A stretch of DNA of 64,000 bases from a virus: the IMG/VR virus record IMGVR_UViG_3300050821_002136, positions 32,001 through 96,000 of that record; one strand, given 5' to 3'. The notes under the pieces were generated by a model. That model had not been told where the DNA came from. It saw only the letters and a list, made by a program, of their open reading frames with translations, and did not search any database. The first letter of the stretch is position 1. Each line of letters starts with the position of its first letter. This document shows positions 11,900 through 12,899 of this stretch, in pieces. A program made the translations under genes and the position numbers.

Positions 11900-12014
11900 G
11901 GCGTGCGGTTCTACAGGGGGAGGGCTTAGCGGCCCTGGTGGAAATCTGAGCACTAAGGTGAGGCAAAGATGAAATCTCAGATATGAACTCCCTTCCCCTG
12001 TAGGGCCGTACGCC
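11900..12014 (+). ncRNA. Unassigned structured RNA element (25-bp closing stem with branched interior)
   Basis: 11900-11924 pairs fully with 11990-12014; all 4 non-Watson-Crick pairs are G.U on the + strand; inner ATCTGAG/CTCAGAT stem. Confidence 0.6.
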
Positions 12015-12025
12015 CCGTAAGTTAT

Positions 12026-12325
12026 GGATGTATGAAGCTGAGGTACGAGTTGCAAGACCCGGTTTCGATACCGGCAGGTCCACCACAACGCTTCAGGTAT
12101 AACGGCATTACCGGCGTACACCCGGAGAGCGGGTCTCGCTGAAGCGTTTTGATGGGCCTGAAAGGTTTCGATTGCGACTACGAGACAGCAGTGGACATCC
12201 CGAGATGACGTGGCCCTCGTTAAAAGGACACGTAACAACCAACCGCGACTGAAAAGCCGATGGTTATGGCAGCTGCCGCAGGGCGCTAGCCATAGGGTGG
12301 GCAGGGTCAAACCTGCCCTACCGAT
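12026..12325 (+). ncRNA. ssrA: Circularly permuted (two-piece) tmRNA: acceptor piece ~12026-12085, intervening segment 12086-12153, coding piece 12154-~12325
   Basis: 3' end GAC-CCGGT-TTCGAT-ACCGG-CAGGTCC-A-CCA precedes the 5' end GGGCCTG-AAAGGTTTCGA. The 7-bp acceptor stem has G3.U70 and discriminator A. Helix 2 pairings, PK1 and a tag ORF are present. Outer boundaries are approximate. Confidence 0.9.
12245..12289 (+). other. tmRNA tag reading frame (A)ATEKPMVMAAAAGR*
   Basis: GCG resume codon 11 nt after PK1, preceded by CAACC; ends TAG CCA TAG within helix 5 (TATGGC/GCCATA). Confidence 0.8.
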
Positions 12326-12328
12326 TTT
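12296..12328 (+). terminator. Hairpin ending the tmRNA coding piece (terminator-like)
   Basis: GGGCAGG-GTCAAA-CCTGCCC followed by a short T run. Confidence 0.55.
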
Positions 12329-12368
12329 AGATTCAGATGTACAAACCCAAACAGGAGAAACAACATCA

Positions 12369-12899
12369 ATGAAGTACCTTAGCTCCATCTTAGCAATTCT
12401 CGTTCTTTCCATTGCGGCCTTTTCTCAGGATTACCCAGTAGGCCCGAACGTAGGCAAGGCAACCACGCCGTACGCAACCACCAACTTCTCGGCCACATTC
12501 GACGGCCCAGTGACTGCAATGTTGCCAACGAGGAATGGCGAGAACACCAGCACCGATTACAAGTACGTTTCTCAGAACGGCAAAGTTGCAGAAGCAGTCA
12601 CGGTTCGCTTTATTGACCATGACATTGCTGTGGACTATACGTCCTCCGACTTCTACGCCAACGACGACCGCACGGGCGGCACGGTAGACACGGCTAACAC
12701 CAGTCATGATTCGTGGAATGGTGCGCCGTTCACTTATACGTACCGTACCTTTACGCTCGATGGTGTGATACTGACCAAGCGTACTCGTTACATCATCGTG
12801 AATGCTCGTGAGGCCATCTTCATTCAGCAAATCACGGCTGTTGGATATGAAGATCGGCCGGAATGGCTGGACTTCGAGTACTCGTTACGCATCAAGTGA
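12369..12899 (+). CDS. Secreted/periplasmic protein
   Basis: AGGAG RBS; signal peptide MKYLSSILAILVLSIAAFSQ. Confidence 0.75.
   Translation: MKYLSSILAILVLSIAAFSQDYPVGPNVGKATTPYATTNFSATFDGPVTAMLPTRNGENTSTDYKYVSQNGKVAEAVTVRFIDHDIAVDYTSSDFYANDDRTGGTVDTANTSHDSWNGAPFTYTYRTFTLDGVILTKRTRYIIVNAREAIFIQQITAVGYEDRPEWLDFEYSLRIK

Follow-up and report, generated by a model that had tools for sequence, protein, structure and literature searches.

The 64-kb window analysed here comes from an IMG/VR virus record of 108,277 bp with a rated completeness of 98%, of which it covers bases 32001-96000. Judged by sequence and predicted structure, positions 12026-12330 (+) of this window are an intact two-piece (permuted) tmRNA gene of the phage (Table 1). 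A phage tmRNA had been proposed here in a sequence-only reading of the window, and this identity is now backed by a covariance model, by structure and by synteny. The Rfam family RF04321 (tmRNA_permuted) matches at 12026-12283 (+) with 66.6 bits (cut-off 47, E 1.2e-10) and over the full model (1-213); it is the sole Rfam family above its cut-off within the whole window, and this is its single match across the 108-kb phage record. Our own detector, which seeks a 7-bp acceptor stem with G3:U70 followed by A, plus a TCGA motif after the 5' strand, found exactly one site in the 64-kb window, coinciding with the RF04321 gene. ARAGORN called no tmRNA in the window; the likely reason is a T-loop of 6 nt where 7 are usual.

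Table 1. Window coordinates of the tmRNA parts and of one candidate partner gene
Feature	Position	Strand	Basis or remark
Acceptor piece: helix-2 3' strand, T arm, acceptor 3' strand, A and CCA	12026..12085	+	RF04321 alignment, direct reading
T arm (in acceptor piece), 6-nt loop TTCGAT	stem 12059-12063/12070-12074	+	RF04321 alignment, direct reading
Acceptor 3' strand, CAGGTCC	12075-12081	+	direct reading
Discriminator A and encoded CCA	12082-12085	+	direct reading
Intervening sequence, 68 nt	12086..12153	+	insert region of the Rfam model
Coding piece: acceptor 5' strand, helix-2 5' strand, PK1, tag frame, helix 5, terminal hairpin	12154..12330	+	
Acceptor 5' strand, GGGCCTG; G3 pairs with U70	12154-12160	+	
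Pseudoknot PK1	12201..12233	+	direct reading; just upstream of the resume codon
PK1 stem 1, CGAG/CTCG	12201-12204/12216-12219	+	
PK1 stem 2, ACGTG/CACGT	12208-12212/12229-12233	+	
Tag frame: resume codon GCG, 14 sense codons ending GGG CGC (Gly-Arg), stop TAG	12245..12289	+	
Helix-5-like hairpin, loop GCAG	12265..12294	+	fold of 12236-12332
Terminal G+C-rich hairpin (12296-12322), then ACCGATTTT	12296..12330	+	fold
Clp/Hsp100 D2-type AAA+ unfoldase, single-ring, 340 aa	29127..30149	+	candidate partner only

The tmRNA gene lies among replication genes, namely those for a helicase, a ParB-like protein, an exonuclease, a primase-helicase, an RNA ligase (9 kb downstream of the tmRNA) and RecA, and five phage tRNAs are located elsewhere in the genome. 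Searches of the phage for genes of SmpB, ClpP and an S41 (Tsp-like) peptidase found none of them, and blastn of the tmRNA locus against 50,697 phage records gave no match. We considered whether prophage integration could have altered the 3' end of a host ssrA gene and discarded the idea, as the genome is near-complete and of lytic type and the gene is syntenic in relatives.

Directly upstream of the tmRNA, window positions 11900-12015 form a hairpin whose stem is about 25 bp long (-66 kcal/mol, z -5.7); at the same site, two relatives (L193 and L206) have a hairpin of equal length and other sequence. The conserved motifs TGGTGGAGGC and GCCCCGTAAGTTA flank this hairpin, and GCCCCGTAAGTTA occurs only here in the window. 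The upstream motif CCCGTAAGTTA has a single occurrence in the window and is therefore not a general phage promoter. Directly after the tmRNA, at 12369-12899, lies the gene of a 176-aa protein. The protein matches nothing in Pfam or PHROG and has a hydrophobic, signal-like segment at its N-terminus; the gene in this position varies between relatives.

Structure of the RNA and the tag frame

The order of the gene is permuted, as the acceptor 3' strand with its CCA (12075-12085) lies upstream of the 5' strand. The elements of alanine identity are present: the two strands form a 7-bp stem with G3:U70, followed by A73 and then CCA. Among relatives, the bases of this stem change while the pairing is kept, in a comparison in which our detector itself required such pairing. 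The T stem has 5 bp, but the T-loop is one base short of the canonical 7. In related phage tmRNAs, the T-loops have 5 to 8 nt (e.g., TAGCATAT, GGCGGTA, TCGTA) and are often far from the tRNA consensus (e.g., L193, L200, L004, and L019), while the T-stems covary. The intervening sequence, which is expected to be removed by tRNA-end processing, is very variable in length among relatives, from about 10 to 150 nt.

Within the coding piece, both stems of PK1 show compensatory changes in relatives (ATGTG/CACAT, TTGTG/CACAA, TGCAT/ATGCA, and CGTG/CACG), and an A/C-rich linker separates the pseudoknot from the tag frame. The fold of 12236-12332 (-43.3 kcal/mol, z -3.9) places the Gly, Arg and stop codons of the window in the 3' strand of the helix-5-like hairpin. 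The hairpin that follows, together with ACCGATTTT, probably forms the 3' end or the terminator of this piece; a hairpin plus an ACCGA motif is seen again in relatives. A scan around the gene for consensus promoters and terminators called nothing, the terminal hairpin of the window included.

The letters given for 12245-12295 in the sequence-only reading (GCG ACT GAA ... GGG CGC TAG CCA TAG) are identical in the window, and its claim that the tag ends in Gly-Arg agrees with our direct reading, the frame being backed by homologous tmRNAs. The frame encodes ATEKPMVMAAAAGR (end ...AAAAGR) before its stop, and a second in-frame TAG follows at 12293-12295; the remaining two frames stop at once (CGC GAC TGA). 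A canonical ssrA degron consists of a free C-terminal hydrophobic residue and Ala-Ala, and in the phage tag this place is taken by Gly-Arg.

Tag ends among related phages

A primase-helicase search brought up 16 related viral contigs; where the flanking DNA was long enough, most of them have a permuted tmRNA in the corresponding position. Metagenome contigs were further scanned by means of the conserved gene just downstream, which gave 80 loci; in 39 of these, our detector found one tmRNA each in the same syntenic place. On 10 positive controls (the 64-kb window included), the detector reported exactly one site each, at the expected place. Tags were then read from 48 phage and metagenome loci, which amount to 35 distinct tag ORFs and about 30 peptides. 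The Gly-Arg end is not a one-off of the window: among the tags read, 11 distinct peptides have it. The other ends, counted likewise in distinct peptides, are GK (1), GC (2), GV (1), GA (3; e.g., L216/L217), HA (6), and AA (6). The last residue after the penultimate Gly is thus R, K, C, V or A; a basic residue is commonest and is not obligatory.

In 18 scored distinct ORFs of the G-X type, the penultimate Gly is invariant although it is written with all four codons (GGG 7, GGC 4, GGA 2, and GGT 5), and the three positions before it are nearly always Ala, again with all synonymous codons in use. The Arg codons at GR ends are CGC (9), CGA (1) and CGG (1). Over the six codons before the last, pN/pS is 0.21, and at the last codon it is about 1.2. 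In the HA class, the last five codons have a pN of 0 and a pS of 0.6, and the His is invariant. Since the Gly is invariant with four codons, and since the GR codons move within helix 5, from the 3' strand (window) to the loop (L015) or the 5' strand (L011), these data indicate that the Gly-Arg end is kept across related phages by selection on the peptide. RNA pairing was also considered as a reason for the GR codons, which would then be complementary to Ala codons in helix 5, and the positions in L015 and L011 exclude it.

The tag had been described as a normal one (...MVMAA) extended by AAGR. The residues are as described, but an extension is not simply what happened, as close relatives join the same N-terminal half to another tail. 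Four relatives have the first eight tag residues of the window and the G-R end, with synonymous differences between them (GTT/GTG/GTC for Val, GGG/GGA for Gly, and CGC/CGA for Arg), and in L193 and L204 the same N-terminal half carries the tail ...MAAHA. The tails have therefore been exchanged or remodelled among close lineages. When viral contigs were searched for the DNA pattern of the peptide end, only three chance matches in G+C-rich coding DNA turned up beyond the known relatives.

The primase-helicase gene used for finding relatives is itself interrupted in several of them (loci L308-L315). In G002 (C1:21613-24516), an in-frame, intein-like insertion of ~1 kb lies within an open frame of 1005 aa, and in G001, G182, and G183 the gene is broken near residue 305, two of the three having a stop codon there.

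Tags of the likely host family and known systems

By primase-helicase, the nearest cultured phages are the Tunturiibacter phages Tunturi_3 (51% identity) and Tunturi_4 (44%). These relatives link the phages to Acidobacteriaceae hosts, and we infer an Acidobacteriaceae-type host for the window phage from primase-helicases that are only 51% and 44% identical. Tunturi_3 has an unannotated permuted tmRNA (63 bits) at L022 1501-1725 (-), that is, PP885686.1 88172-88396, away from the primase region, and its tag ends in ...LAA. The paper on Tunturi_3 never mentions a tmRNA and reports tRNAs, one of them of unknown type (PMC11924767). The unannotated gene of this cultured phage offers an experimental entry point.

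Acidobacteriaceae genomes were reached via a 16S signature. A standard one-piece tmRNA is present in 92 of 101 genomes of the Granulicella mallensis family, a tally that includes the unpublished G010 and G033, from neither of which a tag was read; the one-piece tags that were read all end in A[LY]AA (33/33). Four Acidobacteriaceae genomes have a chromosomal permuted tmRNA of 79-84 bits (L271 in G035, L272 in G113, L273 in G056, and L281 in G149), with 30-residue tags that end in ...AFAAAA. Two of the four showed no standard gene, and the permuted gene apparently replaces it in a small Acidobacteriaceae lineage. The form is rare: the 2025 tmRNA database has only 5 permuted genes for 2144 Acidobacteriota genomes (PMC11915505).

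On sequence grounds, the phage gene is related to this rare host form. Both are arranged in the same order, with a short intervening sequence, their PK1/resume regions are similar (CCACGTTA.GG.AG...CAAA), and the host permuted tags begin with ANT... and have ...KAFAAAA-like ends, as do some phage relatives. Unlike the phage tags, the host permuted ones are 30 residues long with four terminal Ala, and a G-X or HA end occurs in none of them. The standard Acidobacteriaceae tmRNA (RF00023) has the same function as the phage RNA and host factors in common with it, but it is made in one piece of about 350-390 nt and has tags of 9-15 residues with A[LY]AA ends.

Two-piece tmRNAs of phages are already known. 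There are 53 among 18,146 phage genomes (PMC9004378), and the 2025 tmRNA database holds 79 phage sequences of this kind (PMC11915505). The window gene resembles those of the OM43 phage Melnitz and the pelagimyophages in that a permuted ssrA with a tRNA-like domain and a tag frame sits in a lytic-type phage that has no SmpB (PMC9004378); in one phage of that type, the form of the tmRNA differs from that of the host (PMC9004378). Unlike them, the window phage belongs to a soil and peat group with Acidobacteria-type hosts and has no sequence match in the phage collection. A charged tag end is discussed neither in PMC9004378 nor in PMC11915505, and we found no discussion in the literature of phage tmRNA tags with masked ends. 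Among about 710 tags, a charged last residue is recorded only in Carsonella, whose tag ends in lysine (PMC4131195). The end is thus charged as in the phage tag, but the Carsonella ruddii gene is that of a degenerate endosymbiont under relaxed selection, whereas the phage tags are under purifying selection.

Possible fates of the tagged peptides

In textbooks, tmRNA tags are signals for degradation, and nearly all of them end in Ala-Ala. ClpX recognises ssrA by its last residues and its free carboxylate, and an Asp-Asp variant of ssrA supports ribosome rescue without ClpXP degradation. The engineered E. coli Asp-Asp variants are like the phage tag in having an altered, charged C-terminus on an ssrA-like tag; they are laboratory constructs, however, and the Gly-Arg change of the phage is natural and conserved. 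We know of no study of ClpX specificity in Acidobacteria.

The reading that we put forward, tentatively yet as a realistic prospect, is that of a working phage two-piece tmRNA whose tag escapes the host ClpXP route. The RNA, if expressed, would be charged with alanine by the host AlaRS and delivered by host EF-Tu and SmpB, the latter because the phage lacks a gene for it, and it would free ribosomes stalled on broken mRNAs during infection. The tag keeps its Ala-rich stretch, and the Gly-Arg end removes the free Ala-Ala terminus that ClpX reads, so that rescue would be uncoupled from the host hand-off from ssrA to ClpXP. A benefit against host defences that cleave mRNA or tRNA, as suggested from the sequence, is speculative, and its sole context is the RNA ligase gene 9 kb downstream. 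The G-X and HA tails, two independent designs, each break up the terminal Ala pair at its penultimate residue, a pattern that favours such an escape. Several observations weigh against it. The last residue is free at a pN/pS of about 1.2, so a positive charge is common and not required; six related phage tags keep the AA end, so masking is not needed by all; and the T-loop, one base short, counts against a working tmRNA in the first place. In addition, the strict M-x-A-A-A-G conservation and the invariant Gly suggest that the peptide is read by something, and such strictness would be unexpected if mere avoidance of a degron were at stake.

Other explanations differ in how much they ask of the tag. 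If the host tag ended in the same way, nothing would be masked; this has next to no probability, as the 37 tags read from the family to which the hosts of the nearest isolates belong (33 one-piece and 4 phage-like permuted) all end in Ala-Ala. It is also highly improbable that the RNA is a decoy which titrates host SmpB or alanyl charging and whose tag is seldom translated. The TLD-only RNA of mycobacteriophage DS6A is a precedent for a decoy (PMC4131195), and both the lack of a phage SmpB and the non-canonical T-loop, with 5- to 8-nt loops in relatives, would suit one; yet conservation extends to PK1, the resume region, the stop codon and the coding signature of the tag, none of which a decoy would need. 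The competition for SmpB that had been suggested from the sequence finds no specific support here either, in a phage without SmpB and with a tag under clear coding selection, which argues for translation. The end of the tag might otherwise be of little consequence, with only extra rescue capacity needed and the fragments either still cleared or their fate irrelevant in a short lytic cycle; the Gly-Arg end would then stem from lineage history or from constraints on translation termination. The variation of tail type (AA, HA, and G-X) among close relatives and the free last residue agree with this, as does the established fact that lambda-immP22 in E. coli depends on ribosome rescue and not on proteolysis. 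We nevertheless consider it unlikely, for drift would not be expected to yield a Gly that is invariant across four codons, a His that is invariant within the HA class, and pN/pS values of 0.21 and 0.

Recognition of the tag by another machine is an alternative of more weight, though we still hold it to be doubtful: the ...AAAG-(R/K/...) end would be a private degron read not by host ClpX but by the phage's D2-only unfoldase with host ClpP, or by host ClpA/ClpC, Lon or FtsH, and the phage would choose the protease that clears the rescued fragments. The last seven to eight residues are under strong purifying selection and show synonymous turnover, as would be expected of a recognised motif. A candidate reader, which a search of the phage genome for Clp-type ATPases brought up, is encoded 17 kb from the tmRNA, a distance that counts against this reading. 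Its 340-aa product has Pfam matches to AAA_2 (130 bits) and ClpB_D2-small (66 bits), resembles the D2 ring of ClpB, ClpA and ClpC, and contains Walker A (GPTGTGKT), Walker B (DEIEKA) and pore-loop (GYLG) motifs; it has no N-domain and no D1 ring, with about 20 residues before the D2 module. Its IGF aligns with the AGF/LGF tripeptide by which ClpC/ClpC1 dock to ClpP, in a loop that is absent from ClpB. Homologues have YGF, FGF and YGF at this position, but in two the tripeptide is not conserved (LGQ and EGG). A complex prediction of the unfoldase with two ClpP copies (from G035) scored 0.08 against a mark of 0.32, which is no verdict on binding in either direction. In related genomes with a completeness of at least 66%, the unfoldase is found in 6/6 with G-X tags versus 1/6 with AA-ended tags. 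We set this co-occurrence aside as proof of a link, since the helicase tree separates no independent G-X lineages and these genomes may be one clade; moreover, the unfoldase also stands alongside an ...AAA tag in G002. The more specific proposal that host ClpX ignores the tag while the phage unfoldase, seated on host ClpP, reads it would make a complete private system for writing and reading, and we rate it as quite unlikely. If it were true, the phage and not the host would control which rescued fragments are destroyed, and the tail classes G-X, HA and AA would result from an arms race over who holds it.

Rescue uncoupled from host ClpXP remains our preferred reading. A soil-phage clade appears to keep, under selection, a tag end that breaks the Ala-Ala rule, and this departure bears on the reason why phages carry tmRNAs. 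If escape or re-aiming is true, it would offer a natural example of ribosome rescue that is split from the host ssrA-ClpXP route or sent to another reader.

The unfoldase has homologues in G001, G002, G182, G183, G186, and G190; G184, G189, and Tunturi_3 have none. In G190 (C1:79457-80530; L299/L300), the match comes in two pieces within one open frame of 410 aa, which suggests a short insertion near residue 270.
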